Source: a bacterium
GTDB taxonomy: Bacteria; Zhuqueibacterota; Zhuqueibacteria; Residuimicrobiales; Krinioviventaceae
Assembly (NCBI GenBank): GCA_963674595.2
Contig: CAXXFV010000003.1
Span: 64,001 to 128,000, forward strand
Length of the DNA: 64,000 nt
Reading direction: 5' to 3'
The notes beneath the pieces were generated by a model. It was not told the origin of the DNA, did not search any database, and saw only the letters and a program-made list of their open reading frames with translations. Position numbers and translations under genes: made by a program. Below, piece after piece: positions 20,944-47,920 of the stretch. The number at the start of each line of letters is the position of its first letter. Positions within the stretch are counted from its first letter, which is position 1.

Positions 20944-21085
20944 TAAAAAAACATTTTGATGAGGTAGTGAGATGATGAAAATATAAGGCATTTCGGCAAA
21001 TTTTATATTGAGTCGGTGAAATGCCTTTTTTTATGCTACCTGTTTTTAATAATTTTTCATTAATATCAGATTGGGAGAATTTAGT

Positions 21086-25302: not shown

Positions 25303-26962
25303 AATAGAAAGAATTTTGGAAAATAAAAAGTACCACCTTGTCGGCAAAATTTATATCAGCGCCGATTTTGAATTAAAAAGTCCTCTGCTCATCGGTTCAG
25401 GTGAATCTGAACATTCCGACATTGATATAATTCGAGATATACCATTTGAAGGCGAATCACAGCCGATGATTCCTGCGACATCCATCATTGGCGTGTTTCG
25501 GCATCTGTTTGATCGGCTTTTCACCAAAGAACAAAAAATAATGCTGTCCGGATCAAATGAAAATAAAGTGGATGTACGTGACGCTTTATATGAATTTTTT
25601 GGCGTTTCAGATGATATGAACGACAAGACTTTGAAATGGTTACGATATAACGAGAAAAAAGAAAAGTGGAATTTGAATCAAAGCGCTCTAATAATGCGAG
25701 ATATTATTTTGGATCAAGCCAAGTACCAGGTTACCCAGCGTGACAGCGTTCGTATCGACCCGAGAACCGGCACAGCTATGGAACATGCCAAATTTGATTA
25801 CGAAATTGTTGAGCCGCCAAAGGAAAGAAAAGATGGCAAAGAAGCACCGGTTACCATGACTTTTGAAATCAATCTACGAAATAAAATCGAAGCCGATTAT
25901 AATAAATTGTTCAAAACCTTTGTCGGTTATTTTTTGCAGGAAATTGATGGTGGCCATATCCGATTCGGCGCTAAAACCAACAAGGGATTCGGGCGGTTGA
26001 AATTGATCCCGGGTTCGATTAGAATAGAGCAACTCAATTTGGAAACAGCAGACGATCTTAAAAAGTGGTTGACCAACAGAATTTTTCAGGTGGAACCGGA
26101 AGAAAAAGCGTCAAATGTTGTTGACATCAATGCTCTCAAAGGCGGCATCAAGCTTGATCTCTATACAAAGACTTTTACAATTGATGCAGAGTTTCGAATT
26201 AAAAATTCAATGCTGGTACGTTCTTATTCCACAGATCCAAAGGCACCTGATGTATCCCACATTCAGCGAAATGGTCACTATATTCTCCCCGGCACCTCAA
26301 TCATGGGGGCTATTCGTCATCGGGCGTGGAAAATTATCAATACTATGTTTGAAGATGCAGAGAACAAAAAAGATAAATTTTACAAATTGTTCGGATATGT
26401 CTATACCCATGATGAATATCCAGAATTCCCAGCAAACTTTTTTAAACGTGATGAAAATGGAAAATTGGTTATTAAGCACCCTGCAAGAAAAGGACGTGTG
26501 ACGGTTAACGAGACCATCATTGAAAATCAAAAACAGAGCATCGTCGATCAAATCCAAACCCGCATAAAAATCGATCGCTTTACCGGCGGAACAATTGCCG
26601 GTGCCTTGCTGCAGGAACTGGCCCTGTGGCAAAAAGATGACGAGTCAGTGATTAACATCAACCTGCATATCAAGGATTATACAGACTGGGAGCCGGCACT
26701 GTTTATGTTCATCCTCAAAGACCTTGTCACCGGCGATTTGCCCATTGGCGGTGAAAAGAGTATTGGGCGTGGGGTGTTGATTGGCAATAAAGCGACAGTA
26801 TCCTGGACTGACCGGTCGGAGCCAATTGACCTGGAATTTGACCAGAGTGGTTTCGTGATAGAAAAGGATCAGCAAGAGTTGAAAAAGTTTGATAATTTTA
26901 TGGAAGCCTGGCGTAAGGTGCGTGAAGAGAAAACGACCAGCGGAGGTGACAAAAATGAATAG
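25295..26962 (+). CDS. cas7: Double Cas7 RAMP
   Basis: Two RAMP units: PMIPATSIIG...GAKTNKGFG and ILPGTSIMG...IDRFTGG...IGGEKSIGRG. Confidence 0.88.
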   Translation: MNKIERILENKKYHLVGKIYISADFELKSPLLIGSGESEHSDIDIIRDIPFEGESQPMIPATSIIGVFRHLFDRLFTKEQKIMLSGSNENKVDVRDALYEFFGVSDDMNDKTLKWLRYNEKKEKWNLNQSALIMRDIILDQAKYQVTQRDSVRIDPRTGTAMEHAKFDYEIVEPPKERKDGKEAPVTMTFEINLRNKIEADYNKLFKTFVGYFLQEIDGGHIRFGAKTNKGFGRLKLIPGSIRIEQLNLETADDLKKWLTNRIFQVEPEEKASNVVDINALKGGIKLDLYTKTFTIDAEFRIKNSMLVRSYSTDPKAPDVSHIQRNGHYILPGTSIMGAIRHRAWKIINTMFEDAENKKDKFYKLFGYVYTHDEYPEFPANFFKRDENGKLVIKHPARKGRVTVNETIIENQKQSIVDQIQTRIKIDRFTGGTIAGALLQELALWQKDDESVININLHIKDYTDWEPALFMFILKDLVTGDLPIGGEKSIGRGVLIGNKATVSWTDRSEPIDLEFDQSGFVIEKDQQELKKFDNFMEAWRKVREEKTTSGGDKNE

Positions 26963-27620
26963 TAATAATAAAGCTAATGGGCTGACGCTGATTACACTAA
27001 AAACCGAAAAAATGACAGGCCTTCTTGATTCATGGCCCGAGATAAAAGACAGGCTGGGGGACTCTGCTAAATACGTTGTTTTTTATTTTGATTACGGAAT
27101 AAGATTCGGCGTACAAAATGGCGATAAGATATTTTTTCAGGAGGGACCTGCCGAGATTGAGAAACTGCAACTCGATTATTTGCAATTAGCTCGATTTTTT
27201 GACAAGAATATGGAATTGAAAATCTGGCGTGATGGTGAAAGGAAACACCATTATAGGAGTTATCACGATTCTCCCGATAATGGTGGAAAAACCGAAATTG
27301 TTGAAGCAAAGCAAATATTATGGGGCACTCGTGCGTGCTCAACGACCATGGATGTACCTGATTCATTTACAATTAACGATAAAACATTCTCTCAAATCTA
27401 CTGGATAAATCTAACCGAAGATCGTGGCACCGAGTTGGTAATCCCTTTTCATGAGCCATTCAATATCCCTGAGAAAACTGACCACCCGAGGCTTGCAGTA
27501 AAAACCTATAATTACATTGACTATTTGGAAAACGGACTGGCGACCTATGTAGATAGCCGGTTTGTGGATATAGAAACAGTTTCGGAATATTCCTCAAAAT
27601 CAAAAATGGAGGATAAATAA
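26955..27620 (+). CDS. csx19: Csx19
   Basis: ARFFD...ELKIWR, QILWGT, YIDY..NG...YVDSRF; type III-D position; RBS GGAGG before ATG 26955. Confidence 0.8.
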   Translation: MNSNNKANGLTLITLKTEKMTGLLDSWPEIKDRLGDSAKYVVFYFDYGIRFGVQNGDKIFFQEGPAEIEKLQLDYLQLARFFDKNMELKIWRDGERKHHYRSYHDSPDNGGKTEIVEAKQILWGTRACSTTMDVPDSFTINDKTFSQIYWINLTEDRGTELVIPFHEPFNIPEKTDHPRLAVKTYNYIDYLENGLATYVDSRFVDIETVSEYSSKSKMEDK

Positions 27621-27621
27621 A

Positions 27622-29817
27622 ATGATAGCAGGAAAAATAAAACGAGTATTTATTGATAAAGGATATGGCTTCATTACATATGAAAAGGGCAAAAAAGTCT
27701 TTTTTCATATAAATGGCATGGTTAATCGAAATATTTTCAATTTATTAAGTGAAAACGATGAAGTTTTCTTTGAGGGGATAAAAAAAACAGCAAAAGGAGA
27801 AGAAGCTTTCAATATTTTTTGCGAAAAAAAAGATTTTGGTTCACAAATAGCTCAAAAAAAGACAAAACATAGATTTCGTAATCCTTATAATTTTGTTCGA
27901 TTTGATCCAACTCTAAATTATTCGTATAGCTATCGTCAAAATCCACTTAGATGCAATGATGACCAAATTTTATATGACGGATATATCAACGTAACAATGC
28001 AAATAAACTCTCCTCTTTTTTGCAGTGGGAAAGAAAGTAATCCCACTCATACGGGCCACAAATTATATGATTTCTACAAAATTGACGGAACACCAAGAAT
28101 CCCTGCAAGTTCATTGCGAGGTATGATTCGTAACGTATTTGAAACTATTACAAATTCTTGCATGTGTATGTTTGAAGGTCAACATTTAACAAGAAGAATG
28201 AGTGCTACGGAGGCACAAAAAATGATTCCCGCGATCGTCGAAGAAGATCATAATCATAAGACCTTACACGCACGTCTTTTGAGAGGACACGTGAAAAAAA
28301 ACGAACAAAATCATAGCCTACAGTTCGCTGCATGGTATAAAATGTATCATCGGCATGATACTGTAGGTTCAACAAATGGCATTCAACATGGCGATAAATG
28401 CTGGGCCGTAATCGAGAACAAACCGGTATTAAAAGAGAAAGGGAGAAACAAGTTTTATTATTGGAAAGTACGTGATATCCATCCAAAGACGATGGATCAA
28501 TCAAGTATTAGTTACAACTTGAACGAATGCTTTCTTGTTAATGGTTATTTTTTCAAATCAAATAACAATATTAATAGGAAACATGACGAGAGAATATTTT
28601 TTGATTTGGGAGAAACGCCTAAATCATTACCTTTAGAATCTGGAATACTCGATGAATATGAAACTGTATTAAATGATTACATCCGACGACATAGCGACGA
28701 TATTGAGAAACGGAGTGAAAGCAGTTATCCTTGCAAACCCGATCAAGCCGACGAAAAACATAAAGCTATTAGCCATTTTATAATCAGTAAAAAAACTAAA
28801 TTACAGAATGGTGATCTGATATACGTTGCAGTTGATAACGTAAAGGATCCAACCTCAATCAAATTTGTTGCTCCTGTTTCCATCGCTCGTCTTTTATTTG
28901 ATAACTCTATTGAAGATATATTAGATAGCTCTTATCCTGACTTAAGAAGCTGTGATTTTTTTAATACTTCGAATAACTTTGAAAATCTTAAATTATGTCC
29001 TGCATGCAGAACTTTTGGATGGGTTCGCACTAAAAATTCCGCCTCTAATGCCATATCATCATGTGGAAGCAAAATATTTTTTGATGATGGCAAAATAACT
29101 GATGCTGAATTTTTAGATGAAATTACTCTTCCTATCTTAGGCCAGCCGAAACCTACAACTCAACCATTTTATTTGTTAACAAAAGATGGAAAAGAATCAT
29201 TTTCAGTCGACTATAACATATACAAGAGTCAACTTAGAGGAAGAAAATACTACTGGCATCAAGAGAAGTTAAATAAATCAGAATATTCTATCAGAAAACG
29301 AGGAATTCAAAACAGAACAATAAAAAATATTATCCAAAAAGGGAAAATAAAATTTCGAGTTCGTTTTAATGATTTGAGCGATTTTGAGTTAGGTGCACTT
29401 TTGTATGCTATAAAACTCGAAAAAGGCTGGCAGCACAGCCTTGGACTTGCCAAGCCTCTTGGATTCGGTTCTTTAGAAGCAACAGAGTTAAAATTGTATT
29501 TAAAAAACGATGAATATTATCACAGTTTTACAAAATCTCTCAAATCTGAAAAAGATGAATTTGTTACACAAAAAATCAACACATTTAATGAAAAATATAA
29601 AACTATATTTGGAAAACTCTTTTCGGAAACGATAACTTTTCTTGATCTTAAACAGCTATTAGGAAATCCTCAGAGTGTAGCAGTTCATTATCCTAGAACA
29701 ACTGACACACTAGACGAAAACGGTAAACAATTCAAGTGGTTTATGGATAATAAGAATATATGGAAAAAAGCACTTCCGATAGCTGGAGATAAAACGGACT
29801 TTGACTTTGAGATTTAA
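27622..29817 (+). CDS. cas7: Large Cas7 RAMP with insertion and N-terminal cold-shock domain
   Basis: GKIK....KGYGFI....VFFH (CSD), FRNPYNFV, IPASSLRGMIR, CPACRTFG, LRGRKYYWH, LGLAKPLGFG. Confidence 0.88.
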   Translation: MIAGKIKRVFIDKGYGFITYEKGKKVFFHINGMVNRNIFNLLSENDEVFFEGIKKTAKGEEAFNIFCEKKDFGSQIAQKKTKHRFRNPYNFVRFDPTLNYSYSYRQNPLRCNDDQILYDGYINVTMQINSPLFCSGKESNPTHTGHKLYDFYKIDGTPRIPASSLRGMIRNVFETITNSCMCMFEGQHLTRRMSATEAQKMIPAIVEEDHNHKTLHARLLRGHVKKNEQNHSLQFAAWYKMYHRHDTVGSTNGIQHGDKCWAVIENKPVLKEKGRNKFYYWKVRDIHPKTMDQSSISYNLNECFLVNGYFFKSNNNINRKHDERIFFDLGETPKSLPLESGILDEYETVLNDYIRRHSDDIEKRSESSYPCKPDQADEKHKAISHFIISKKTKLQNGDLIYVAVDNVKDPTSIKFVAPVSIARLLFDNSIEDILDSSYPDLRSCDFFNTSNNFENLKLCPACRTFGWVRTKNSASNAISSCGSKIFFDDGKITDAEFLDEITLPILGQPKPTTQPFYLLTKDGKESFSVDYNIYKSQLRGRKYYWHQEKLNKSEYSIRKRGIQNRTIKNIIQKGKIKFRVRFNDLSDFELGALLYAIKLEKGWQHSLGLAKPLGFGSLEATELKLYLKNDEYYHSFTKSLKSEKDEFVTQKINTFNEKYKTIFGKLFSETITFLDLKQLLGNPQSVAVHYPRTTDTLDENGKQFKWFMDNKNIWKKALPIAGDKTDFDFEI

Positions 29818-29920
29818 AACTACTTATTTTTTATTGAAGACTAAAATATTATTCATTTGCATAAAAACATAGAAAGAAATCTAATAAAGAATATTTACTC
29901 CAGTAAAGAAAGAGTTATTT

Positions 29921-31019
29921 GTGAACACTTTTATTCTCTCACCCTGCGGTATTAGTATTTTGATCAACGAAGTTGATAGCACGCTGCGCAAATTGTTGAA
30001 TGAATATGCCAACGAACCGGAAATCAACAATGTGCCTAAAGAAGTACAGAAACGAATTGAGCAACTTGTAATTAACTTTGAGAAAAAAAAGAACACAATG
30101 GATATTCACAATATCCGCAACCTCTCAGCTGAACTTATTGGCATAATTCTTTATTATAATAACCAGCTTGAATTGAAAGATGACTATCATCTAATCTTAA
30201 GCACCGACACCTGGCTCGGCGAAGTGTGCGCTACCCTCATTCAAAAATGGCTGCTAAATAAAGGGGCTGTTTGCGAGATTTTTCGTCAACAAGGTTTACA
30301 AACGAGAAATGTTCAAGATTTCCACTACGCCCTATCCGAAATGGCACCCAAACTTTTTAAACGAATCAATGATTTCAAGACAGCGAAAAACAGGATTATT
30401 TTTAATCTAACAGCCGGATTCAAGGTGGTTGTCGGTTTTTTACAATCTCTTGGCATGCTACACGCAGGCGAGCTAATCTATGTCTTTGAATTTACTAGTC
30501 ATCCTATCCGTATGCCCAAGGTGCCAATCAATATAAGCGTAACGAAGTATATCCGAGAGTACCTGCAAACATTCAGAAAATTAATAAATGGACTGGAAAT
30601 ATCGGAGCCGGAAATAAAAAATGTACCGGAAACTATGATTTTAAAAATCGGTGATGAATATCTACTATCGACATGGGGCAATATTTTTATGACGGAAGCA
30701 AAAAATGAAAGATACACTAAGAAACTTTTACCGCCCATTTGTTCTAAAGTGCAATACTAGCCAAAATTTGAAAGGATTGTTACCAATCTTGAAAGCGAAA
30801 GAATTAGCATTCTAAACCATAGGCTCAACCAACAATGCAGGCTCTTTCAGAAGAACGATAATCCGACATCTTTAAGTTTCAGAGTTGAAAGGCAGGCCTG
30901 TTCCCGGACCAACACACGAATTTTACGCATGGTCGGATAAAGGTGCGGAACGCTATTTTGGCCATTTTGTAAATGATAAAAAAGTATTTATTATAAATAC
31001 ACTAGCAAAGCAATTGTAA
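29921..31019 (+). pseudogene. Cami1-like CARF-wHTH-RelE effector with disrupted RelE domain
   Basis: APE2256-type CARF (SPCGISIL, SAEL, STDT..G, FNLTAGFK, YVFE); after the TAG at 30758-30760 the reading continues PKFE..RLNQ..NPTSLSF then, frameshifted, LKGRP..PTHEFYAWSDKGAERYFGHF. Confidence 0.7.
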
Positions 31020-34139: not shown

Positions 34140-35117
34140 TTGAAACCAACTATGCATCTACTTCCAATAGAAAAAATGCCGTTTAAATTTGCAGTTGTCA
34201 ATATGCAATTACAAGTACAATCGCCACTGTTTTTCAACAAGTATCCGGGTTTTATTTTGCGGAGTGGATTTGGTGCAGCTTTAAAAGAACTCTGTAGATA
34301 CGATTCAAGGCACATACCTTGTAACCAATGCCGGTTGGTGGACAGTTGCCCATATTCCTATATTTTTGAAACATATAATCCACAAGAACGCAAAATAGAT
34401 TTTAATGCAGAAAAATTTCCGCATCCATTTGTGTTTTATTTGCATGAAATTGATAATAAATATTTTCCATCAGGTTCAACATTAAATATAACTTTAACAT
34501 TGTTTGGAAATGGAATAGATTATTTGTTATTTTACATTTATGCCTTTGACGTTTTAGGAGAAATGGGTCTGGGGCCAAAACGTGGTAAATTTATGCTTAC
34601 CAAAGTTTCCGATCATTTTACAGGGAAATCTCTCTATGAAGCGCAAAGTAAAACGGTTTTAGAAAATCCTCATGCTATTACTTTGAACGATTTGGAACCT
34701 AATTTAAAAAAAATTAAGAATAGTAAAATTTTATTTATTATACCTACCACAATCGCTAAAAATAACAGAACAATAGATACACTAACATCAGAAATATTTA
34801 TACGCAGTTTACTTCGTCGGGCGTCGTTGCTTGCCAAACTGCATACCAGCAATAAATGGGAACTGGATTATATAAAAGTAATTGACAAATTTTGTAATAA
34901 AGTAGATATTAAAGAGTCACAACTGGTTGTGAAGCCTTATGACATATATTCATCAAGACAAGGCCGCTCACGTTTAATACATGCATTTAAAGGAAGTGCA
35001 TTAATAAAGGGAGAATTGACTCCATTTTGGCCTTTGTTAAAATTAGGTTCTTTTATGCATATTGGCAACAGCACAAGCCAAGGATTTGGTAAATATGAAC
35101 TTGCAGTGATTGAATAA
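34140..35117 (+). CDS. cas6: Cas6 crRNA processing endoribonuclease
   Basis: GFILRSGFG, C..C....CPY, PHPFV, GLG..RG, HIGNSTSQGFG. Confidence 0.92.
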   Translation: MKPTMHLLPIEKMPFKFAVVNMQLQVQSPLFFNKYPGFILRSGFGAALKELCRYDSRHIPCNQCRLVDSCPYSYIFETYNPQERKIDFNAEKFPHPFVFYLHEIDNKYFPSGSTLNITLTLFGNGIDYLLFYIYAFDVLGEMGLGPKRGKFMLTKVSDHFTGKSLYEAQSKTVLENPHAITLNDLEPNLKKIKNSKILFIIPTTIAKNNRTIDTLTSEIFIRSLLRRASLLAKLHTSNKWELDYIKVIDKFCNKVDIKESQLVVKPYDIYSSRQGRSRLIHAFKGSALIKGELTPFWPLLKLGSFMHIGNSTSQGFGKYELAVIE

Positions 35118-35334: not shown

Positions 35335-36170
35335 GTCGGAATACTACCCAGGACTAATACTGGATTGAGACATAGCTATATACTGCTTGAAAAATCTTTG
35401 ACTCGCCGGGTCGGAATACTACCCAGGACTAATACTGGATTGAGACATTGGCTATTTCAATTAGATTATCAAAGTAACCTATTTGTCGGAATACTACCCA
35501 GGACTAATACTGGATTGAGACATCTTTAATAAAACTCCTTTACCAGTGTAGTCTCCCTCCGTCGGAATACTACCCAGGACTAATACTGGATTGAGACTTT
35601 AAAAATCTATTTTTGCCATCTCCGCAGCATCTCCGTCGGAATACTACCCAGGACTAATACTGGATTGAGACATTATAACCGGGTAAGCCAGGAAGATCAG
35701 TGGCGACCAGTCGGAATACTACCCAGGACTAATACTGGATTGAGACTTTTCAATAAGCAAACTCGTTGGCATTTGGATTTTTGATGTCGGAATACTACCC
35801 AGGACTAATACTGGATTGAGACAACATCTGAGAAACTATTGTAAGAAATGCCCAAATAATGTCGGAATACTACCCAGGACTAATACTGGATTGAGACTTT
35901 TTTCACATCTCTTTCAATTTGCCCACGTTGTGCAGTCGGAATACTACCCAGGACTAATACTGGATTGAGACAATTAAAGTGTAGAGCCACGAATGCGTGT
36001 CATGTAATGTCGGAATACTACCCAGGACTAATACTGGATTGAGACTTTATTTTTTTTGGAAGATTTCCAGGGCCACATAATGCGTCGGAATACTACCCAG
36101 GACTAATACTGGATTGAGACAGAATTCATATCCGTGAAATTGCAATAAAAAAATGGACACCTAGTTAAGT

Positions 36171-36992
36171 TTAAGCTGCTTTATTAAATTTTAAGAATTG
36201 TACTGGTGACATATTGCCCAAAAAGGAATGAATTCTTTTTCGGTTGTAAAATATTTCAATATATTCAAATATTGATTGCTTCGCAATTAATCGTGTTTCA
36301 TAAGTATGATGATAAATCAGTTCTTTTTTCAAAGTACCAAAAAAGCTTTCAGCAACAGCGTTGTCGTAGCAGTTTCCTTTTCCGGACATACTTTGGACCA
36401 TTTGAAAAAGAGCTAACATTTTTCTGAATTCTTTACATGCATATTGAACACCACGGTCCGAATGAAAAATCAAATCTGTTGAAGGACGAAAACGATGATA
36501 TGCATGTTTTAGGGCCGGGATTGTTGTTGAAGAAGCATGCAGGTTGTTACTCATGGCCCAGCCGACAACCTGGCGATTGTATAAATCAATGATCACTGTC
36601 AGGTACAACCATCCTTTGCGAGTCGGGATGTATGTAATATCAGAAACCCAGACTTTATTGGGTTGATTGACTGTAAAATTCTGTTGTAAAAGATTTGGTG
36701 ATATTGGCAGTCTGTGATCACTATTTGTGGTTACTTTGAATTTACGTTTTGTTTTTGCACAAATTTTGTTCTTTCTCATTAAACGAGCAACACGCGGACG
36801 GCTGACAATCAAGTTTTCCTTATGTAACTCTTGTGTTATTCTGGGACTGCCATAGCTTCCTCTGGATTCCTTGTGGATATGTTTGATCCGTTCAAGTATC
36901 TTTTTGTTTTCCAGTTCTCGTTGACTCATTGGTCGCTTGCTCCAGGTATAAAACCCGCCCCGGCTGACATTGAGAACCTGGCACATTTTCAC
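36171..36992 (-). CDS. IS3 OrfB DDE transposase
   Basis: YGSPRI, WVSDITY, FHSDRGVQY, GNCYDNAVAESFF. Confidence 0.95.
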   Translation of the reverse strand: MKMCQVLNVSRGGFYTWSKRPMSQRELENKKILERIKHIHKESRGSYGSPRITQELHKENLIVSRPRVARLMRKNKICAKTKRKFKVTTNSDHRLPISPNLLQQNFTVNQPNKVWVSDITYIPTRKGWLYLTVIIDLYNRQVVGWAMSNNLHASSTTIPALKHAYHRFRPSTDLIFHSDRGVQYACKEFRKMLALFQMVQSMSGKGNCYDNAVAESFFGTLKKELIYHHTYETRLIAKQSIFEYIEIFYNRKRIHSFLGNMSPVQFLKFNKAA

Positions 36993-37033
36993 TATTGGGA
37001 ATTCCTGTTGATGCTTTTGGATAAACCCAAACT

Positions 37034-37330
37034 TTAATGGGACGGTTTTGAGAAAATGGCCACAGCTTTTTTTAATATATCCCGCTCCAGTTTTACGTCT
37101 GCAAGTTCTTTACGCAGTTTCTGTATTTCATCACTTTCTTTGCTGTTCCCTAGTCCTGGAAAGGAATGTTCTTTATCAATTTTGTATTCTCGAACCCACT
37201 TGGAGAGAAGGTTAGGCTCAATACCAAGATTTCTGGCAACTTCTGAAGCATTACCATTGCTTTTAGAAAGTACAAGCTGAACAGCTTCTATTTTGAATTC
37301 TTTTGTGTAACGTCGTCTTCTGTTTGTCAT
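37034..37330 (-). CDS. IS3 OrfA
   Basis: RRRYTKEFKIEAV..VARNLGI..W, ERDILKKA. Confidence 0.93.
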   Translation of the reverse strand: MTNRRRRYTKEFKIEAVQLVLSKSNGNASEVARNLGIEPNLLSKWVREYKIDKEHSFPGLGNSKESDEIQKLRKELADVKLERDILKKAVAIFSKPSH

Positions 37331-38554
37331 GTGGACACCTCCTTTGGTTTATAATATAAAAAGTGCTTAACTTTGTGTCCACTAAAATATAGCAACTTTA
37401 CCGTTTTGAGGATTCCTGGTAATTTGTCGGAATACTACCCAGGACTAATACTGGATTGAGACTTTATAGGCACCTGGGTTAGTCCAGGTCAAGACCTTCA
37501 GTCGGAATACTACCCAGGACTAATACTGGATTGAGACATTTGGGATTTATTAGACTAAACAGTTCCAATCTCAGTCGGAATACTACCCAGGACTAATACT
37601 GGATTGAGACACATTGAATTAAAATTGTTATTGTATGTATTGCAAAGTCGGAATACTACCCAGGACTAATACTGGATTGAGACAAAAAGACCGCAATCGG
37701 CGATAAACTCGTCTCCTTCATGTCGGAATACTACCCAGGACTAATACTGGATTGAGACATTGAAATACTTCATTAGATGTGTCCTTAACCATTAACCGTC
37801 GGAATACTACCCAGGACTAATACTGGATTGAGACTTTCGTTGGATCCATTGGTTGACCATTAGACATGATTTGTCGGAATACTACCCAGGACTAATACTG
37901 GATTGAGACTACGGTTATCCACTACCGCTCCAACCAACATCAACGGTCGGAATACTACCCAGGACTAATACTGGATTGAGACATCCCCATCACGAGAGGT
38001 GATCCTCCGCATCCAGGTCGGAATACTACCCAGGACTAATACTGGATTGAGACATTTGTAAGAAATTTTTGATTATTATAAACTTTCAATGTCGGAATAC
38101 TACCCAGGACTAATACTGGATTGAGACATCCATGGCGCCGGTTCGTTAAACGACATATGAACGCCAGTCGGAATACTACCCAGGACTAATACTGGATTGA
38201 GACACTGCCAAATCATTTTCGATAAAATAAATCCATGCTTTGTCGGAATACTACTCAGGACTAATACTGGATTGAGACTTGAATATGAACCATTTGTGCA
38301 CGTATAAAAATTACCGTCGGAATACTACCCAGGACTAATACTGGATTGAGACTTTTATGTGTTTAATGTTATGATAAATTTTCGTTTTGTATCAATAGGA
38401 TCCACACAGATCGAGGCCATGAGATTGTTGCTTACAAAAAATGAAAAAGTGTCCAAGAAGGTTTGACATATCTAATATATCATTAATTAAAAGCGAAAAT
38501 CATTATCATATTTGATTCAGGAGCAAAGTGAGATACAACTGAAAAGGAGTTTAT

Positions 38555-39667
38555 ATGTCCAAAACACTCATCAGCCTAATAAGCGATCAAACAATTCCCA
38601 ATTTATTGTTAATAAGGGAATTCCCTGAAGTAGAGAATCATGTCTTTATTACAACACCGGAAATGGAAGCAAAAAAAAAATCCGATCATTTACAAAATGC
38701 GGCGAACTTAGCAGACACAAAAATTAATAAACTGATTGTGCAAGCGGACTCGCTTCTTGATGTTGAGGAAAAACTCGGGAAAGCAAACTTGACCGAGCAA
38801 AATCAATATATCATCAATTTAACTGGTGGAACCAAATTGATGTCGATAGGACTGTATAACTTCTTTCGGAACTCAAAATTAATGTGCGATATGTATTATA
38901 TTGATATTCGCAAGCACACATATCGCAAGGTTTTTCCGGTGGTAAAGAAAAAGGAAAAACAGTTTAAAGGGAATTTGGGGCTACAAGAGTATTTAACCGG
39001 CTATGGTCTAGGCATAAAAAATTCGAATCAAATAAATGACCTTACTTGTGAGCCGGAGGTTACATCCTCATTTTATAAAAAATATCTTTCTTTTAGCGAT
39101 TTTGACCTCAGTTTGCTTTCAGCCTTGCGGGCCAATCGCAAAAGGAAATTACAACTGGATGCAACAGAAGCAACCATGTTAAAAAAACGATGGGGCATTA
39201 CGCTTTCTAATGAAGGATTTATAGATAAAAGTGAAATTCATTTTTTAACTGGTGAATGGTTTGAGGAATATGTTTATTCGTGGATAAAATCATACCTCAA
39301 TCTAAAGGATGAGCAAATCGGCACCGGAGTATCTATTACGCGTAAGGAAGTAGAAAATGAATTTGATGTTTTGTTCTATCATAATCATACTTTGTCAGTA
39401 ATTGAATGTAAAACTGGTTTGTGGAACAGTACTGCGAATCGGAATATTCTTGGAGATACACTGTATAAACTGGACGCATTAAGAAGCGATTTTGGCCTTC
39501 GTGTTAAACCGTATATATTCACTCTAGCAGAACGTGGGGACGAAAAGTATAATATCCGGGAACATCACGAAGAACGGGCAAAATGGATGGGTGTTGAGAT
39601 TGTTGACAGATCAATTTTATTAAATCCGGAAAAGCGGGCAATGTTGATGAATAAAATTAAGGGATGA
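38555..39667 (+). CDS. Card1/Can2-like CARF + PD-(D/E)xK nuclease
   Basis: LISDQTIPN, NLTGGTKLMS, GEWFEEY, NEFDV, IECKTG. Confidence 0.85.
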   Translation: MSKTLISLISDQTIPNLLLIREFPEVENHVFITTPEMEAKKKSDHLQNAANLADTKINKLIVQADSLLDVEEKLGKANLTEQNQYIINLTGGTKLMSIGLYNFFRNSKLMCDMYYIDIRKHTYRKVFPVVKKKEKQFKGNLGLQEYLTGYGLGIKNSNQINDLTCEPEVTSSFYKKYLSFSDFDLSLLSALRANRKRKLQLDATEATMLKKRWGITLSNEGFIDKSEIHFLTGEWFEEYVYSWIKSYLNLKDEQIGTGVSITRKEVENEFDVLFYHNHTLSVIECKTGLWNSTANRNILGDTLYKLDALRSDFGLRVKPYIFTLAERGDEKYNIREHHEERAKWMGVEIVDRSILLNPEKRAMLMNKIKG

Positions 39668-39751: not shown

Positions 39752-42724
39752 ATGTCTAAATTATTCGACCAGCTCACAAGTGATACCACTCTAACGACTG
39801 CATGGGAAAAGGTAAGATCAAACGCCGGGGCAGCAGGTGTCGATCAGATTACTGTGAGACACTTTGAGGAAAATGTCAATGAAAAGCTGATTATCCTCAA
39901 AACCTCTCTAATCGACGGTTCATACCAGCCCTTGCCTTTAAAAACATTTCGAATTAATAAAGAGGACGGACGAAAACGTACTTTACATATTCCCACAGTT
40001 CGAGATAGGATTGTCGCTCAAGCTTTAGTGATGGTAATTCAGCCGATTTATGAAAAGATATTCCACAATTGCAGCTATGCATACAGGCCGGGATTATCTT
40101 CTAAAAAAGCATTGGATCGTGTTGAACGAAATCTAAAGCGTGGCAGGGTTTGGGTTCTTAACCTTGATATTATGGATTTTTTTGACAGTGTTAACAGAGC
40201 CCTTTTGATGAATTTGCTTGAACAGGAAATAGCAGATAAAAATATCCAGAAAATAGTCCGGTTGCTAATAGATTCATTTGAAAATGAAACCAACTCGGGG
40301 ATTGCACAAGGTCTGCCCCTCTCCCCTTTGCTATCCAATATTTATTTACACCCGTTGGATGACCGACTCGTGCGTGCACAATGGAATTACATCCGATATT
40401 CGGATAATATTTTAGTATTGGACAAAGAAGAATCACAGATAAACAAAGCATTTGATTGGATTAAAGAAGAGATGGAAAAACTGGATTTGACATGGAGCGA
40501 AGAAAAAACAGCTATTGTTCATTTAAAATCAGGCTTTTCATTCCTTGGTTTTCATTTCAATGAAAAGGGTAAACAGCCGGATAGACCTGCATTCGAAAGA
40601 CTGGACAAACGCATAGGTAGTCTGCTGGGAAAAGCTTTTCAATATACCGATGCACAAATGAAAAGCAAATTAGAGGCAATACTTCGTGGTTGGCTTAATT
40701 ACTTTGATATAAATGCAGATGATAAAAAAGAAATATTGGCTCAAGTTGATCAGAATATTCCGGGAGACGACAATGCACTTCCACGCAAAATAATCAAAGT
40801 AGTATTGGCATATCAGCTGGGAGATGAAGAAAGTGCACGGAATGAATTGAAAGCAGAAGATATTATGACTTCGCAGGATGCAAGGCTTAATTTCCAGTGG
40901 GGAATTATATGTGATATATTAGGTTTCCAAAATGAGGCAAGAGACAGCTATTTAGCAGCCTTTCGACAGGAACCAAACGATCCCGAAACAGCCTTTCAAA
41001 TAGGCTTATACTATTTAAAGCGAAACCAGCACGACCAGGCCATTCGTTATTTACAAAAATCAGTACAGTTAGATTCTGAAACTGCATTATACCAATTTAC
41101 ACTTGGCATTGCCCTAAAAAATTATTCACTGCATGGCGCTGCCGGAAAAGCTTTGAAAAAGGCATACGACCTGGAACCATCCCTCAGACATATATTAGAC
41201 AAAACTCCCAAACCAAGTGATAACGATGAGAGATACAAAAAATTTTCAGATAATGATATTGATTTATTTCTTAGACTATTCAATGGTCGGGAAGGTGTGC
41301 ATGCAATACAATGGCTTAATGATGATGGTAGAACGGGATACTCTAGTGTAAAGAACCGGATTTCTCCTTCTGACATAAAAGCCCACTGGCAGGGTGGTAT
41401 TACGCTGGGCATGTACTTGATGCGGATGGATAATACTGTCAGCCATCTTGTTTTTGATATTGATGTTACCAGACAGGCTAGGAGTTTAATTTCTGATGAG
41501 GAAAATTTGCATGAATGGCAGGAGTTTGTACTGAATGATGTGCATCTTGTCAGGTCAGTTTTAAACGATCTGGGCATTCATGCGGTGGCCGAAGACTCCG
41601 GTTACAAAGGTGCTCATTTATGGGTATTTTTTAACGAACCTCAACCTGCCCGACGTATTATTAATTTTGCGAGAAAAGTAATCCAAAAAGCAGGGCCACC
41701 ACCAACAGGACTTCACCGGGAAATATTCCCCAATCAACCTTCTGTTTCGGAAAAAGCACTAGGACCTCTCGTCAAAATTCCCATGGGTTTGCACAAGTTG
41801 ACGCAAAAGAGATGCGAATTTCTAAATGAAACAGGCCAACCGGTTAATAGTCCATTTGACTTTATAAAAAAAATAAAGGCTGTAACAACAAAAGAACTGC
41901 TTACAGCTTTCGAGAAAACCAGGTCAACTGCAAGGCTCGACAAAACCAAAATAAAAAAACAAGACAGTGAAAAGCTTGACAAAATTTTTAATGGTTGTAA
42001 CGTTCTTGCCTATTTGCAGGAAAAGGCCATAAAAGAACACCAACTATCCCACATGGACCGATTAACCTTATTGTGTGTTATCTCTTTCCTTGGCGAGGCA
42101 GGGAGGCAAAAGCTACATGAAATTATCAGTAACTCAACAAATTACGATTTCAAAATTACAGAAAGATGGTATCAACGAAAACGGGGTTATCCTGTCAGTT
42201 GTCCAAAAATTCGAATTTGGCAAAGCAACATTACCCCTGCTGTAGGCTGCTATTGTAAGTTTAAAGAAAATCCTGGAAATTATCCTTCTCCTCTACTTCA
42301 CGCAGATGAAAATTATATCAGTAAATTAAAAAAGAAAATTAACAAAGAACTGAAACAAAACAAAAGCATTAAAGATTCGCCAAAACAAAGCCAAGACTAT
42401 GCTGAGCCCAAAGCAAACAATACCGAAAAAGACAAACACGAAACGAGATCAAATGACAAAATAGTCGAGAACAATAAATCTCAATTGAATAACAAGGAGT
42501 CAAATAATGGTTCAGGAGTCCAAAAAGAAATATTAGAAGATATTGTAGAAAAATATTTAAAATTGCTGACGAAAAAGCGGAATATTGAACGACAACTTTT
42601 ACAGATTGAAGAAAAACTAGACCAAATAGCAACAGATAATGGTGGCGATACAATTGAGACCAAGATGGGAAAATTGATAAAAAAGACGGAAAACGGCAAA
42701 ACAAAATGGCTATTAGAATTATAA
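39752..42724 (+). CDS. Reverse transcriptase-TPR-AEP primase-polymerase fusion (CRISPR-associated primase-polymerase type)
   Basis: RT: AGVD, IPTVRDRI, SYAYRPG, DIMDFFD, QG..LSPLLSNIYL, YSDN, FLGF; TPRs; AEP: FDID, SGYKGAH, EIFP, VKIP; Cys-rich PriL-like tail. Confidence 0.9.
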   Translation: MSKLFDQLTSDTTLTTAWEKVRSNAGAAGVDQITVRHFEENVNEKLIILKTSLIDGSYQPLPLKTFRINKEDGRKRTLHIPTVRDRIVAQALVMVIQPIYEKIFHNCSYAYRPGLSSKKALDRVERNLKRGRVWVLNLDIMDFFDSVNRALLMNLLEQEIADKNIQKIVRLLIDSFENETNSGIAQGLPLSPLLSNIYLHPLDDRLVRAQWNYIRYSDNILVLDKEESQINKAFDWIKEEMEKLDLTWSEEKTAIVHLKSGFSFLGFHFNEKGKQPDRPAFERLDKRIGSLLGKAFQYTDAQMKSKLEAILRGWLNYFDINADDKKEILAQVDQNIPGDDNALPRKIIKVVLAYQLGDEESARNELKAEDIMTSQDARLNFQWGIICDILGFQNEARDSYLAAFRQEPNDPETAFQIGLYYLKRNQHDQAIRYLQKSVQLDSETALYQFTLGIALKNYSLHGAAGKALKKAYDLEPSLRHILDKTPKPSDNDERYKKFSDNDIDLFLRLFNGREGVHAIQWLNDDGRTGYSSVKNRISPSDIKAHWQGGITLGMYLMRMDNTVSHLVFDIDVTRQARSLISDEENLHEWQEFVLNDVHLVRSVLNDLGIHAVAEDSGYKGAHLWVFFNEPQPARRIINFARKVIQKAGPPPTGLHREIFPNQPSVSEKALGPLVKIPMGLHKLTQKRCEFLNETGQPVNSPFDFIKKIKAVTTKELLTAFEKTRSTARLDKTKIKKQDSEKLDKIFNGCNVLAYLQEKAIKEHQLSHMDRLTLLCVISFLGEAGRQKLHEIISNSTNYDFKITERWYQRKRGYPVSCPKIRIWQSNITPAVGCYCKFKENPGNYPSPLLHADENYISKLKKKINKELKQNKSIKDSPKQSQDYAEPKANNTEKDKHETRSNDKIVENNKSQLNNKESNNGSGVQKEILEDIVEKYLKLLTKKRNIERQLLQIEEKLDQIATDNGGDTIETKMGKLIKKTENGKTKWLLEL

Positions 42725-42777: not shown

Positions 42778-43767
42778 ATGAGCAATCTTTATGTTACCGA
42801 GCAAAACTCTGTAATTAGACTATCATCCCGCACTTTGCAAATTACAAAGGGAAAGGAAAAGATAGCACAAGTTCCAATGATAAATGTTGACAGCATTCTC
42901 GTTTTTGGAAATCCTCAAATTACAACTCAGGCAATGGCTGTTTTATTGGAAGAGGGAATTGATGTCGCTTTTCTATCGACAAACGGGAAACTGCGTGGAC
43001 GGTTAACATCATCTGTGTCCAAAAACGTACTGTTACGAGTTGCTCAATACGAACGTCAATTGGATGATGAATTTCAGGTTAATTTGGCTCGAACGATTGT
43101 GAAGTCGAAAATCCGTAACGGGCGTAAAGTAATAAAGCGCTTTTTATACAACCATAGTAATTTTGATTTTTCCAACGAACTTTTATTAATTGAAACGACT
43201 TTAAAAAAACTGGATAACCAAAAAACGGTTAATAGTCTTATGGGTTCCGAAGGGATTGCAACCGCTGCCTATTTTAAGGCTTTTGGAAAGATGTTTTTAA
43301 AAGACTTTCGTTTTGAAACGAGAAGCCGCCGTCCTCCCAAAGATCCTGTGAACGCTTTATTAAGTTTTGGCTATACACTCCTTACTAATGAGATTTTGGC
43401 CCTGGTAACAGCGCATGGACTTGATCCGCATATTGGTTTTTTACATGGTATTGTTTATGGAAGGCCATCGCTTGCTTTGGATATCGTTGAAGAGTTCCGC
43501 CACCCTGTTATTGACAGGTTTGTGCTGAATTTATTCAATTATCGCAAGCTGAATAAAAATGATTTTGAAAAAAGTGAAAATGGAATATTATTAACAGATG
43601 AAGGAAGGAAAACATTTTTTGCTCATTATGATAAGTTACTAAAGCGTAACCTGAGCAAAGAAAAAGGCCCCATTACCTTACGGGATTTATTAAAAAGACA
43701 AGTACGTTGTATGACAGCAACAATAAAAAACAATGCTCCATATAAACCATATAAATTTCAAGCTTAA
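42778..43767 (+). CDS. cas1: Cas1
   Basis: LMGSEG.A..AYF, R.RRPPKDPVNALLSFGY, GFLH, SLALDIVEEFR. Confidence 0.97.
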   Translation: MSNLYVTEQNSVIRLSSRTLQITKGKEKIAQVPMINVDSILVFGNPQITTQAMAVLLEEGIDVAFLSTNGKLRGRLTSSVSKNVLLRVAQYERQLDDEFQVNLARTIVKSKIRNGRKVIKRFLYNHSNFDFSNELLLIETTLKKLDNQKTVNSLMGSEGIATAAYFKAFGKMFLKDFRFETRSRRPPKDPVNALLSFGYTLLTNEILALVTAHGLDPHIGFLHGIVYGRPSLALDIVEEFRHPVIDRFVLNLFNYRKLNKNDFEKSENGILLTDEGRKTFFAHYDKLLKRNLSKEKGPITLRDLLKRQVRCMTATIKNNAPYKPYKFQA

Positions 43768-43768
43768 A

Positions 43769-44050
43769 ATGTTTGTTATTGTTTCATACGACATTGTGGA
43801 TGATAAAAACCGGACCAAGATTGCAAAAAAGATGTGCAACTACGGTTCTCGCATTCAGTATAGCGTATTTGAGTGCAATATAAATAAAACCCAATACAAA
43901 GAAATGAAAAAACAGTTAAAAAAGTTTATAGATCCGGAAAAAGACAGCATTCGATTTTTTAGACTATGTGGTGAATGTAAACGTAATGTAGAATCTTTAG
44001 GAATAAAGAAAGGGTATGTTCCAGAAAAGGATGAGGCCATTATAGTATAA
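43769..44050 (+). CDS. cas2: Cas2
   Basis: MFVIVSYDI, YGSRIQYSVFEC, DSIRFFRLC. Confidence 0.95.
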   Translation: MFVIVSYDIVDDKNRTKIAKKMCNYGSRIQYSVFECNINKTQYKEMKKQLKKFIDPEKDSIRFFRLCGECKRNVESLGIKKGYVPEKDEAIIV

Positions 44051-44317: not shown

Positions 44318-47300
44318 GTCGAAATACTACCCAGGACTAATACTGGATTGAGACTTTGTTCAGCAATTCCATAAATCTGAATTACAAACGGTCGAAATAC
44401 TACCCAGGACTAATACTGGATTGAGACAGATGCTGCTGAGTGTACCAGCAAGAAGCCGTGAACGGTCGAAATACTACCCAGGACTAATACTGGATTGAGA
44501 CATCATAAATACAAAAAACGTAACAAAAAATTTTAAAGGTCGAAATACTACCCAGGACTAATACTGGATTGAGACATCTTCACTAAAGATCTGAATACTA
44601 CATTCACTAGGCAGTCGAAATACTACCCAGGACTAATACTGGATTGAGACGTCATTTGCAATGAATTAAAAAAAATGAAAACAGGCAAGTCGAAATACTA
44701 CCCAGGACTAATACTGGATTGAGACTTAAAACAACCAACCATGTTTTTAATGATTTCATGATGTCGAAATACTACCCAGGACTAATACTGGATTGAGACA
44801 ATACTACGATCAGTATGATAATTATTGCAACAAAAAGTCGAAATACTACCCAGGACTAATACTGGATTGAGACAAAATCGTACAGTCTTCCATCTTCAGT
44901 TCGATCAATGCGTCGAAATACTACCCAGGACTAATACTGGATTGAGACATTACAAAGCTGGCACCATTTGTCGTCTTTGAATTTAGTCGAAATACTACCC
45001 AGGACTAATACTGGATTGAGACATATATTCAGAAAATGCATTTTCTAAAGAAATACATGTCGAAATACTACCCAGGACTAATACTGGATTGAGACTTTCT
45101 GCAAATACAATTTCAAATTCATCTTTTTTAAGTCGAAATACTACCCAGGACTAATACTGGATTGAGACAACTCTTTTTACAGCTGTTTTTGTGATAACCG
45201 GCACAGGAGTCGAAATACTACCCAGGACTAATACTGGATTGAGACATTTTGGCTTCGACCATTAAGGCCTTTGTCCATTTAAAGTCGAAATACTACCCAG
45301 GACTAATACTGGATTGAGACTTACAATCACTCTTGCTATAATAAACATAACAAGTCCCCGTCGAAATACTACCCAGGACTAATACTGGATTGAGACTTTA
45401 TAAGCTTAATACGCATTGTCCTTTATGCTCCTTGTCGAAATACTACCCAGGACTAATACTGGATTGAGACTATGAACGCCACAAATGTCTAATTCATAAC
45501 CATGGTGTCGAAATACTACCCAGGACTAATACTGGATTGAGACATTTTGCGCCCTCTGTTGTCTGGTTTAATTCATATTGGTCGAAATACTACCCAGGAC
45601 TAATACTGGATTGAGACTCCTTCAGCCCATGGCCATACAACAGCCAGACTGAATGTCGAAATACTACCCAGGACTAATACTGGATTGAGACAGTTTTAAT
45701 TATTGGCTAATTTTTTAACCAATTCAATGTCGAAATACTACCCAGGACTAATACTGGATTGAGACTTATTGACTTCGAAAAATGCAAAATTCGTATCACC
45801 TGTCGAAATACTACCCAGGACTAATACTGGATTGAGACCAAAATAATATACTCAATAATATACTCAGCTTCATAACGTCGAAATACTACCCAGGACTAAT
45901 ACTGGATTGAGACAAATATCTTACCCGCCACATGGGTTTTAACCATATAGGTCGAAATACTACCCAGGACTAATACTGGATTGAGACTTTTTTTCTCTTC
46001 TATAATGATTAGAAGACGATTGGGTCGAAATACTACCCAGGACTAATACTGGATTGAGACATTTACTCACCTGCAGCCTCTTTCTCAAAGTATTCTTTGT
46101 CGAAATACTACCCAGGACTAATACTGGATTGAGACTTAAAACAACCAACCATGTTTTTAATGATTTCATGATGTCGAAATACTACCCAGGACTAATACTG
46201 GATTGAGACAATACTACGATCAGTATGATAATTATTGCAACAAAAAGTCGAAATACTACCCAGGACTAATACTGGATTGAGACAAAATCGTACAGTCTTC
46301 CATCTTCAGTTCGATCAATGCGTCGAAATACTACCCAGGACTAATACTGGATTGAGACATTACAAAGCTGGCACCATTTGTCGTCTTTGAATTTAGTCGA
46401 AATACTACCCAGGACTAATACTGGATTGAGACATATATTCAGAAAATGCATTTTCTAAAGAAATACATGTCGAAATACTACCCAGGACTAATACTGGATT
46501 GAGACTTTCTGCAAATACAATTTCAAATTCATCTTTTTTAAGTCGAAATACTACCCAGGACTAATACTGGATTGAGACAACTCTTTTTACAGCTGTTTTT
46601 GTGATAACCGGCACAGGAGTCGAAATACTACCCAGGACTAATACTGGATTGAGACATTTTGGCTTCGACCATTAAGGCCTTTGTCCATTTAAAGTCGAAA
46701 TACTACCCAGGACTAATACTGGATTGAGACTTACAATCACTCTTGCTATAATAAACATAACAAGTCCCCGTCGAAATACTACCCAGGACTAATACTGGAT
46801 TGAGACTTTATAAGCTTAATACGCATTGTCCTTTATGCTCCTTGTCGAAATACTACCCAGGACTAATACTGGATTGAGACGGTTAGTACGGTACAATTTT
46901 CTAGACAACAATTCATGAGTCGAAATACTACCCAGGACTAATACTGGATTGAGACTTATAAAATCAAATAGTGTACAAGACGCAATCCTTGGTCGAAATA
47001 CTACCCAGGACTAATACTGGATTGAGACATATAATCCGTCACTACCAATCAGCTGTGGTACATTTTGTCGAAATACTACCCAGGACTAATACTGGATTGA
47101 GACACATAGATTCCACCATAGTCATTACAAAAATCATTATTGTCGAAATACTACCCAGGACTAATACTGGATTGAGACTTTTGATACATCTGGTCAACAA
47201 TTTCTGATGGCGGAAGTCGAAATACTACCCAGGACTAATACTGGATTGAGACTCATATCTTACCTTTCTCATACCGAGCTCTCGGACAAGTCGAAATACT

Positions 47301-47920
47301 ACCCAGGACTAATACTGGATTGAGACATTACATTGGGTTCACCTATTGTTTTGGCCATAAGGCGTCGAAATACTACCCAGGACTAATACTGGATTGAGAC
47401 AAAATTGTTACTGGCGAACGTAAAAACTCAGATCCAAGTCGAAATACTACCCAGGACTAATACTGGATTGAGACGAAATTATTCCGCAAGAAGCCAGATA
47501 TTTCTAATAATGTCGAAATACTACCCAGGACTAATACTGGATTGAGACATATTCTACTACTTTTTTTATTTTTGTGTTATAAGGTCGAAATACTACCCAG
47601 GACTAATACTGGATTGAGACATAATAATCAAATTTATGAAAAAAATTAACCATTACAGTCGAAATACTACCCAGGACTAATACTGGATTGAGACTTTAAC
47701 TCCTGCTAGAGCCAGCATTATCCATTTTGCCAGTCGAAATACTACCCAGGACTAATACTGGATTGAGACTTAAAGAAAAAAGAGCGAGCGGCAATTGACG
47801 TATTTTGTCGAAATACTACCCAGGACTAATACTGGATTGAGACAATTCTTGTTATATAAGAAGCATTTTTTTACTGTTATTCGGTGGAAATAGACCTAAT
47901 TACCACGGAACGATTGAGAC
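44318..47920 (+). CRISPR. CRISPR array 3: 48 repeats GTCGAAATACTACCCAGGACTAATACTGGATTGAGAC plus a terminal array-1-type repeat (47884-47920)
   Basis: Regular repeat/spacer pattern; 10-spacer block duplicated; last repeat GTGGAAATAGACCTAATTACCACGGAACGATTGAGAC. Confidence 0.98.

Follow-up and report, generated by a model that had tools for sequence, protein, structure and literature searches.

How type III CRISPR-Cas systems turn RNA or DNA into prespacers that are ready for integration is the question raised by one gene in a 64,000-nt stretch of DNA from a bacterium of the Zhuqueibacterota (assembly GCA_963674595.2, contig CAXXFV010000003.1, positions 64,001 to 128,000), which we call the window and whose own numbering is used here. 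A 990-residue open reading frame (ORF) with an ATG start, on the + strand at 39752-42724, encodes a reverse transcriptase (RT) resembling those of group II introns, to which an archaeo-eukaryotic primase (AEP) of the CRISPR-associated primase-polymerase (CAPP) kind is fused. The gene, here called RT-CAPP, lies directly 5' of cas1-cas2 in a type III (III-D-like) locus, where it has one CRISPR array on each side. At the catalytic motif of its RT, where YxDD is canonical, the protein reads YSDN. Previously assayed fusions of an RT with a primase-polymerase (Prim-Pol) domain gave rise to the proposal that the Prim-Pol is generally dead in such proteins; the lineage described here keeps all Prim-Pol catalytic residues and alters a metal-binding aspartate of the RT. 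We find that RT-CAPP belongs to an already described class, the fusions of a CRISPR-associated RT (CART) with a CAPP, or CART-CAPPs (Zabrady 2021, 2023; Toro clade 12), and that YSDN is a lineage-wide selected state of the RT active site, not damage.

The domain architecture of RT-CAPP is defined by profile searches and by an AlphaFold2 model. Pfam RVT_1 matches residues 68-269 (E 5.5e-31), and a phmmer search of the RT region against structures of group II intron RTs gives E 6.5e-47 for 7uim and E 9.8e-42 for 6ar1. The model, built from 63 homologs (mean pLDDT 88.7, pTM 0.66), is confident except for a linker at residues 874-922 (pLDDT <50). Foldseek places its N terminus on the GsI-IIC group II intron RT (6ar1; TM-score on the target 0.75), with alignments to that RT of 417-436 columns, and Pfam GIIM matches residues 286-336 weakly, at 19.6 bits where the cut-off is 23. 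Residues 342-474 are modelled as eight helices forming about four helix pairs, and several Pfam models of tetratricopeptide repeats (TPRs) match within residues ~395-477. The Pfam AEP-TOTE family covers residues 502-716 (E 1.7e-37), and this domain aligns with the Marinitoga CAPP Prim-Pol (7nqe) with a TM-score on the target of 0.92 and an rmsd (root-mean-square deviation) of 1.7 over 222 columns. Its motifs D569-I-D571, S616-G-Y-K-G-A-H622 and E657 line up with their counterparts in 7nqd, a solved structure of the Marinitoga CAPP Prim-Pol. From the TPRs onward, residues 357-956 match the NCBIfam family NF040561 (PrimPol_Msp, 'CRISPR-associated primase-polymerase type A1') at 342.7 bits (cut-off 200) over profile positions 5-515 of 515. 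After the disordered linker the model ends in one long helix with beta-hairpins, which fits the Mu Gam/Gp157-like Pfam model PF22709 (Mu_Gam/Sipho_Gp157-TOTE) on residues 929-990 (E 2.2e-13; 50.3 bits, cut-off 27). The link to TOTE, the TPR, OB, TBP, Effector conflict system (PMC12458937), consists of Pfam domain names only (AEP-TOTE and Mu_Gam-TOTE), and the context is an ordinary CRISPR-Cas locus.

These results bear out an initial annotation, made from the sequence alone, which had read the gene as a 990-residue fusion of an RT, three or more TPRs, an AEP with intact DxD and SGxKGxH motifs and a Cys-rich domain, directly upstream of cas1-cas2 and with Cas1 unfused. Only its coiled-coil tail needs correcting: the stretch at residues 874-922 is a disordered linker, and the long helix that follows belongs, with the beta-hairpins, to the Gam-like domain. 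Two other identities for the gene were rejected. A mobile group II intron RT/maturase is argued against by a score of 292.1 bits for the corresponding model, TIGR04416, under its 300-bit cut-off, by the lack of any Rfam family, group II intron RNA included, at its gathering score anywhere in the 64-kb window, and by the continuation of the ORF into the TPR-AEP region. An RT-Cas1 fusion is excluded because the RT-CAPP frame ends at 42724 and cas1 has an ORF of its own, beginning at 42778.

An N-terminal group II intron-like RT, a CAPP-type AEP with motifs I-III, and adjacency to cas1-cas2 in a type III locus identify the gene product as a CART-CAPP, with YSDN at residues 216-219 in place of the canonical YxDD of motif C. 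The initial annotation had called RT-AEP fusions 'rare and little characterised', which is out of date, since the class has a name, members from Caloramator and Geobacillus have been assayed and 187 full-length representatives were found here. The fusions were named CART-CAPP by Zabrady 2023 (PMC10415136), who report that in the Caloramator and Geobacillus proteins the RT domain acts as primase and polymerase on both RNA and DNA and that their Prim-Pol domain has no activity. The same report hypothesises that CART-CAPPs in general have an inactive Prim-Pol domain despite its conserved look, describes the RT motifs as well conserved across CARTs, and finds that priming by the Marinomonas CART is supported by manganese only (PMC10415136). 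CAPPs are reported to prime and extend DNA, and the Marinitoga piezophila protein, MpCAPP, to bind Cas1 (PMC8211822). RTs adjacent or fused to an AEP are treated in a review as clade 12 of the CRISPR RTs (PMC8632793).

YSDN aligns column for column with the YADD of solved group II intron RTs, confirming the initial reading of the motif, and N219 is encoded by AAT (40406-40408). In an alignment of 63 RT-CAPPs (A1, from which P0029 and P0031, having no RT, were left out) the motif is [YF][SA]DN in 23 proteins and DD in 40, hereafter DN and DD. The 23 DN proteins and the genomic copies from relatives form one clade (SH-aLRT 99) whose branches are deep, with lengths between several tenths and upwards of one change per site. 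All seven genomic copies from relatives encode RYSDN, and their synonymous codons vary (AAT/AAC, GAT/GAC, CGN, TCG/TCC). Because Asn is kept clade-wide while its codons vary, it represents neither a read error nor a private mutation, and is under purifying selection. Thus the homologs are not uniformly YADD, the pattern that the initial annotation had named as the sign of a private mutation or read error, and DN is fixed throughout the clade. D-to-N is a single G-to-A transition. No support was found for a private mutation, sequencing error or decaying gene; the intact 990-residue ORF and the presence of N in 23/23 clade members and 7/7 genomic copies refute this explanation, which we regard as almost certainly wrong. 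In the tree of the 63 proteins, 14 rows that a too narrow regular expression left unlabelled are DD by alignment; P0062, P0064 and P0065 (fragments or proteins with a garbled AEP) were left out of the trees and of the comparison of identities within clades.

The substitution is not confined to one origin. A search of 1.84 billion representatives at 50% identity, merged with the first set, yielded 187 full-length RT-CAPPs with a readable motif after 18 of 205 had been dropped for covering less than 80% of the RT or AEP. DN is found in 33 of these cluster representatives and DD in 154. On a FastTree tree of the 187, calculated with the trait column removed, DN needs six changes, at least five of them forced by well-supported branches, and the DN proteins make up six maximal DN-only groups (sizes 25, 4, 1, 1, 1 and 1). 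An IQ-TREE tree of 51 rows, picked from the 187 after the FastTree tree, again needs six changes (five forced). An approximately unbiased (AU) test by quick search under LG+G4, with the constrained group named after the first tree, rejects a single DN clade (difference in log-likelihood 681, p 2.5e-9). In the 63-protein and 51-row trees the trait column was kept, which can only favour a single clade. On these trees, the D-to-N change is present in at least five separate RT-CAPP lineages.

The same D-to-N change recurs in other CRISPR-associated RTs, with YADN at the homologous position in 6 of 55 RT-Cas1 fusions. Pfam detects RVT_1 and Cas1 only in the four of these six that were scanned, and an RT-domain tree puts the group, with moderate support, on a branch separate from the DN clades of RT-CAPP. 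That tree was used only for this placement; its states, assigned by regular expression, mislabel at least P0187 (DD) and lose some DN rows. In a control set of 80 group II intron RT loci from genome contigs, each matching query residues 1-346 only, DN occurs in none of the 79 with a readable motif, so that the change is absent from the sampled mobile-intron RTs. The YADN fusions are P0077, P0079, P0083, P0085, P0100 and P0104, of 777-852 residues.

Apart from N219, the RT active site is preserved. D139, Q186, G187, D218, K252, L265 and G266 are among 23 RT-region columns that are invariant across all 63 RT-CAPPs, DN and DD. In the DN clade, pairwise identity averages 0.56 over the RT fingers-palm, 0.49 over the AEP and 0.59 over the Cys domain, and two DD clades, with RT/AEP identities of 0.61/0.62 and 0.69/0.61, show the same relation of RT to AEP. 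Judged by these comparisons, the RT domain is not decaying, nor is it relaxed by comparison with the AEP. The DN clade has fixed several residues that are seldom seen outside it: N219 itself (23/23, versus D in 37/37), R149, D204, R208, W383, R577, T772 and G812, and nearly so T795.

The AEP is preserved as well, with DxD, [ST]Gx[KR]GxH and the third acidic motif intact in all 33 DN RT-CAPPs and in 180 of the 187 fusions overall. Degenerate AEP motifs occur in 7 of the 154 DD proteins, five of which have no DxD at all. This reciprocity between DN and a degenerate AEP is not significant, the chance of no overlap being ~0.25 by a rough estimate. The seven AEP-degenerate proteins (P0191, P0239, P0247, P0250, P0258, P0260 and, mildly, P0184) all keep YxDD and are candidates for the type with an inactive Prim-Pol known from the literature.

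On this evidence we favour, at about an even chance, an RT that is attenuated but functional, slow and Mn2+-preferring, and that works alongside an active AEP to make prespacers for Cas1-Cas2. RT-CAPP would be an adaptation-module enzyme made from a domesticated group II intron-like RT and a complete type-A1 CAPP, probably co-transcribed with the cas1-cas2 of its type III (III-D-like) system. It would most likely make or complete spacer DNA from RNA or DNA and pass the product to Cas1-Cas2. The YSDN site would still bind template and dNTP and would still catalyse; a slow, Mn2+-preferring RT would suit short products, such as primers, short tails and cDNA of prespacer length, and robust DNA-dependent priming and fill-in would come from the intact AEP. 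We infer the activity of both sites, the metal preference and the role in acquisition, and for spacer DNA we do so from characterised relatives. The preference for an attenuated but functional RT follows from the D211N mutant of Ty1 RT, which keeps polymerase activity and a normal affinity for dNTP, has a kpol 223-fold lower and prefers Mn2+ over Mg2+ (PMC2148107). In line with it are the manganese requirement reported for CART priming (PMC10415136) and the report that the Marinomonas RT-Cas1 needs no more than short 3'-dN tails on RNA protospacers (10.1101/2023.09.01.555893).

Several points weigh against this reading. Pseudo-enzymes often retain substrate-binding residues, so the conserved RT motifs are no proof of catalysis, and an intact AEP in every DN protein would also be expected if the AEP had taken over synthesis; with 7 of 154 DD proteins degenerate, 0 of 33 among the DN proteins is statistically indistinguishable. 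Intact AEP motifs, for their part, are no proof of an active AEP, given the hypothesis that the Prim-Pol of CART-CAPPs is generally inactive (PMC10415136). Ty1 D211N fails to support transposition, and the same paper cites early work in which retroviral RTs were severely impaired as polymerases by a mutation in any one of their three aspartates (PMC2148107). The biochemistry that we found for this exact substitution is that of Ty1 D211N only, with none on a natural YxDN RT. In the 'dead' CART controls that have been described, both aspartates were changed to asparagine (PMC10415136), so tolerance of a single Asn is not shown by those controls.

The initial annotation had offered two alternatives, an active non-canonical RT and an RT scaffold with synthesis done by the AEP. 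Both are still live, and the computation tilts towards a functional RT site. In the scaffold alternative, YSDN abolishes catalysis and the domain is kept to bind and position RNA or DNA templates while priming and extension fall entirely to the AEP, so that the two domains would have swapped the tasks reported for the CART-CAPPs of Caloramator and Geobacillus. We consider this unlikely, though it is the main competitor. The D-to-N change falls on a metal-ligand position, and retroviral RTs lose function at any of the three aspartates (PMC2148107); the three AEP motifs are complete throughout the DN proteins, all seven RT-CAPPs with a degenerate AEP are DD, the AEP superposes closely on an active solved CAPP Prim-Pol, and R577, T795 and G812 are changes specific to the DN clade in the AEP and C-terminal region. 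However, the YADN RT-Cas1 fusions have no alternative polymerase by Pfam in the four scanned, all other catalytic and dNTP-site columns of the RT are invariant in a domain that is unrelaxed relative to the AEP, Ty1 D211N still polymerises (PMC2148107), and the reciprocity between DN and a degenerate AEP falls short of significance.

Other roles for the altered site, or for an RT elsewhere in the genome, appear less probable still. The chemistry of the RT may have been retuned from templated cDNA synthesis to 3'-5' trimming or proofreading of AEP products, or to template-independent addition of short protospacer tails, which we judge improbable. There are precedents in the E. coli PPRT, whose PrimPol extends primers and whose RT-like site is described as a 3'-5' exonuclease and protein-primed polymerase (PMC12439943), and in the Marinomonas RT-Cas1, which is reported to put short 3'-dN tails on RNA protospacers (10.1101/2023.09.01.555893). 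But PPRT keeps a canonical YVDD, its exonuclease being attributed to a divergent RT6/7 and not to motif C (PMC12439943), and in RT-CAPP the RT6/7 columns K252, L265 and G266 are invariant and group II-like. Complementation in trans, with the fused RT left free to drift, has a possible source in the second RVT_1 gene of the window's genome, a 321-residue stand-alone YADD RT next to the cas1-cas2 of a neighbouring type III locus on the same contig, ~50 kb upstream and just outside the window. This explanation is very improbable: N219 is fixed rather than drifting, the neighbouring cas1 has an in-frame stop, and RVT_1 matches nothing besides the DN RT-CAPP in four of five relatives' genomes (94-97% complete), so a helper RT is no general explanation.

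More broadly, and only tentatively, YxDN could be a recurrent, selected functional state of CRISPR RTs. In this clade it could accompany an inverted CART-CAPP division of labour, in which the AEP works and the RT has been retuned to slow, Mn2+-dependent short products or to a task other than polymerisation, for instance capturing templates or trimming ends. If this is true, spacer-acquisition polymerases have at least two interchangeable catalytic configurations. A further question is whether a weakened RT, as a natural state, is adaptive for making short, spacer-length products. For annotation, an intact YxDD is an unsafe criterion for CRISPR-linked RTs.

Comparison with characterised proteins shows which features RT-CAPP shares and which set it apart. 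Like the CART-CAPPs CaCART-CAPP, from Caloramator australicus, and GlCART-CAPP, from Geobacillus lituanicus, it has an N-terminal group II intron-like RT followed by a Prim-Pol and a C-terminal domain, and its gene adjoins cas1-cas2 in a type III locus. It differs from both in having YSDN instead of YxDD. CaCART-CAPP is described as RT-PP-CTD (713 residues), a description in which a TPR region goes unmentioned, whereas RT-CAPP has a TPR module and a Gam-like tail. By description, to which the comparison with these two proteins is limited, their RT is active and their Prim-Pol inactive; in RT-CAPP all AEP motifs are intact. Relative to the assayed CART-CAPPs, therefore, what is new is the complete TPR-CAPP partner with an intact AEP and the clade-wide, recurrent D-to-N change in motif C. 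We found no description of a DN variant of CART-CAPP or CAPP in the open-access literature, where the supplementary alignments and trees of PMC8211822 and PMC10415136 may already show it.

The part of RT-CAPP beyond the RT resembles the type A1 CAPPs of Marinitoga piezophila (MpCAPP) and Marinitoga sp. 1137 (MsCAPP; 7nqd, 7nqe and 7p9j), which combine TPRs, an AEP and a Cys-containing C-terminal domain, with the gene upstream of cas1-cas2; unlike RT-CAPP with its 340-residue N-terminal RT, they have no RT. The RT-Cas1 and Cas6-RT-Cas1 proteins of Marinomonas mediterranea and Thiomicrospira (7kft; E 1.4e-30) likewise use a group II-like CRISPR RT for type III adaptation, and a subset of RT-Cas1 fusions shares the DN form of motif C (YADN). 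In RT-CAPP, by contrast, the RT is joined to a Prim-Pol, and cas1 stands as a gene by itself. The E. coli PPRT, of the DRT7-type PrimPol-RT defence proteins, also unites an AEP Prim-Pol with a group II-like RT in one polypeptide, together with a PriL-CTD-like domain that may have a counterpart in RT-CAPP, and has a reported non-canonical division of labour between its two active sites, but it has the PrimPol first, YVDD, a divergent RT6/7, an alpha-repeat C-terminal region and no CRISPR link. Ty1 D211N carries the same substitution, the second Asp of YXDD to Asn; it was engineered in the laboratory, in the RT of a eukaryotic LTR retrotransposon, whereas YSDN is natural and conserved.

In the C-terminal domain of RT-CAPP, C749, C817, C833 and C835 are almost invariant across the 63-protein alignment. 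We compared a separate sub-model of residues 730-990 (six sequences, pLDDT 67.6) with known folds using VIA-align. The best matches are C-terminal domains of photolyases and cryptochromes (Z 5.7-6.5), and the same search gives the Fe-S domain of a eukaryotic primase large subunit (6di2) at Z 5.1 and an Fe-S (6-4) photolyase (4dja) at Z 5.0, all of which, at Z of 6.5 or less, are too low to rule out a generic helical match. They agree with the report that AlphaFold3 models of MsCAPP and CaCART-CAPP show a PriL-CTD resembling the yeast PriL-CTD and the Sulfurisphaera photolyase 2E0I (PMC12439943), and the initial annotation's label, PriL-like, is plausible for the modelled domain. A fold search with the Gam-like tail gave generic coiled-coil matches only. 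Position 795 (~42134-42136) is Cys in 34 of 37 DD-type RT-CAPPs and Thr in 21 of 23 members of the DN clade; the window protein itself has Ser at the aligned position (in CSCCYC), and four conserved Cys remain in its C-terminal domain. P0174, a DN-type RT-CAPP, carries an additional N-terminal FHA domain.

The features of the locus are collected in Table 1. Along the window the order is effector genes, the Cas_APE2256 CARF gene, a gene for a second CARF protein, cas6, array 1, the card1-like gene, RT-CAPP, cas1, cas2 and array 2, with cas1 beginning 53 nt 3' of RT-CAPP and cas2 overlapping cas1. The effector-gene part of the type III block spans 21071-29817; its Csx19 and TIGR03986 matches are over their cut-offs, and those to Csx10, Csx7 and Cas10 are under theirs. 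Among 60 genomes of relatives, seven have a full NF040561 match inside an open frame of 929-985 residues. In all six of the relatives' loci with flanking sequence, the order RT-CAPP, cas1, cas2 is kept and cas6 lies upstream, while card1 is directly upstream of RT-CAPP in four; the encoded proteins are 36-46% identical to RT-CAPP of the window. Two of these relatives have identical or near-identical records in the protein collection, labelled candidate division KSB1. A predicted complex of Cas1 with RT-CAPP residues 340-725 scored 0.00 ('no answer'), which weighs neither for nor against binding.

Table 1 Features of the RT-CAPP gene and its CRISPR-Cas locus, in window coordinates.
Feature	Position	Strand	Basis
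RT-CAPP (CART-CAPP) gene	39752..42724	+	ORF; Pfam and NCBIfam domains; AlphaFold2 model
RT fingers-palm, residues 1-270	39752..40561	+	RVT_1; phmmer; Foldseek
RT motif C, Y216-S-D-N219 (TAT TCG GAT AAT)	40397..40408	+	Aligned to YADD; codons
RT thumb/X region, residues 271-340	40562..40771	+	Weak GIIM; Foldseek alignments extend past fingers-palm
TPR region, residues 342-480	40775..41191	+	TPR Pfam matches; eight AlphaFold2 helices
AEP Prim-Pol domain, residues 500-723	41249..41920	+	AEP-TOTE; Foldseek to 7nqe; motif alignment
AEP motifs DxD; SGYKGAH; E657	41456-41464 (DxD); 41597-41617 (SGYKGAH)	+	Alignment
Helical Cys-containing C-terminal domain (PriL-CTD / PriCT-like), residues 736-873	41957..42370	+	NF040561 coverage; conserved Cys; VIA-align, suggestive only
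Disordered low-complexity linker, residues 874-922	42371..42517	+	pLDDT <50; mean pairwise identity 0.19 in DN clade
Mu Gam / Sipho_Gp157-like C-terminal domain, residues 929-990	42536..42721	+	PF22709
cas1, unfused	42778..43767	+	PF01867, E 1.1e-101; TIGR00287, 304.7 bits
cas2	43733..44050	+	PF09827, E 1.3e-28
Putative leader of array 2	44051-44317
CRISPR array 2, 48 repeats of 37 nt	44318..47843	+	
card1-like CARF-nuclease gene	38555..39667	+	CARF_Card1, E 8.5e-33; Card1_endonuc, E 1.4e-18
CRISPR array 1, 24 repeats, interrupted by IS3-family element	35335..38352	+
cas6	34140..35117	+	PF10040, E 5.9e-14
Type III (III-D-like) effector and signalling genes: cas10-like, csx10-like, csx7-like, csx19, CSD-RAMP, Cas_APE2256 CARF/ring-nuclease-like	21071..30760	+	TIGR03986 (CSD-RAMP)

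The cas10-like gene (21071-22705) is short, at 544 residues, and matches the second palm domain only (PF22335, E 3.2e-9), far under the Cas10/Cmr2 cut-off; three CARF-type proteins (APE2256, CARF and Card1) are encoded near it. A large RAMP protein encoded at 27622-29817 (TIGR03986, 311 bits) has an N-terminal cold-shock (OB) domain, and a similar cold-shock-RAMP gene is present in the locus of one relative (L091).

The two arrays differ at repeat position 5, where every one of the 24 repeats of array 1 has G and every one of the 48 in array 2 has A. The 69 spacers match the window's own genome elsewhere over no more than 17-21 nt, and those of array 2 have no match in the phage collection. 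In array 2 a block of ten spacers with their repeats is present twice, at 44726-45433 and 46136-46843, 1410 bp apart, either an internal duplication or an assembly artefact, and 59 of the 69 spacers are distinct. The IS3-family element in array 1 occupies 36121-37425, with its genes on the - strand at 36171-36992 and 37034-37330. It has five near-identical copies in the genome (98.6-100%), one of them inside the CRISPR array of the neighbouring locus. This second type III locus (L100; G000:C3:44001-64000), just upstream of the window, contains ~63 copies of a 37-nt repeat of its own, and its adaptation module consists of the stand-alone YADD RT (G000:C3:51800-52765) followed by cas1 and then cas2, with the in-frame stop in cas1 falling where the EEFRHP motif has its conserved Pro.

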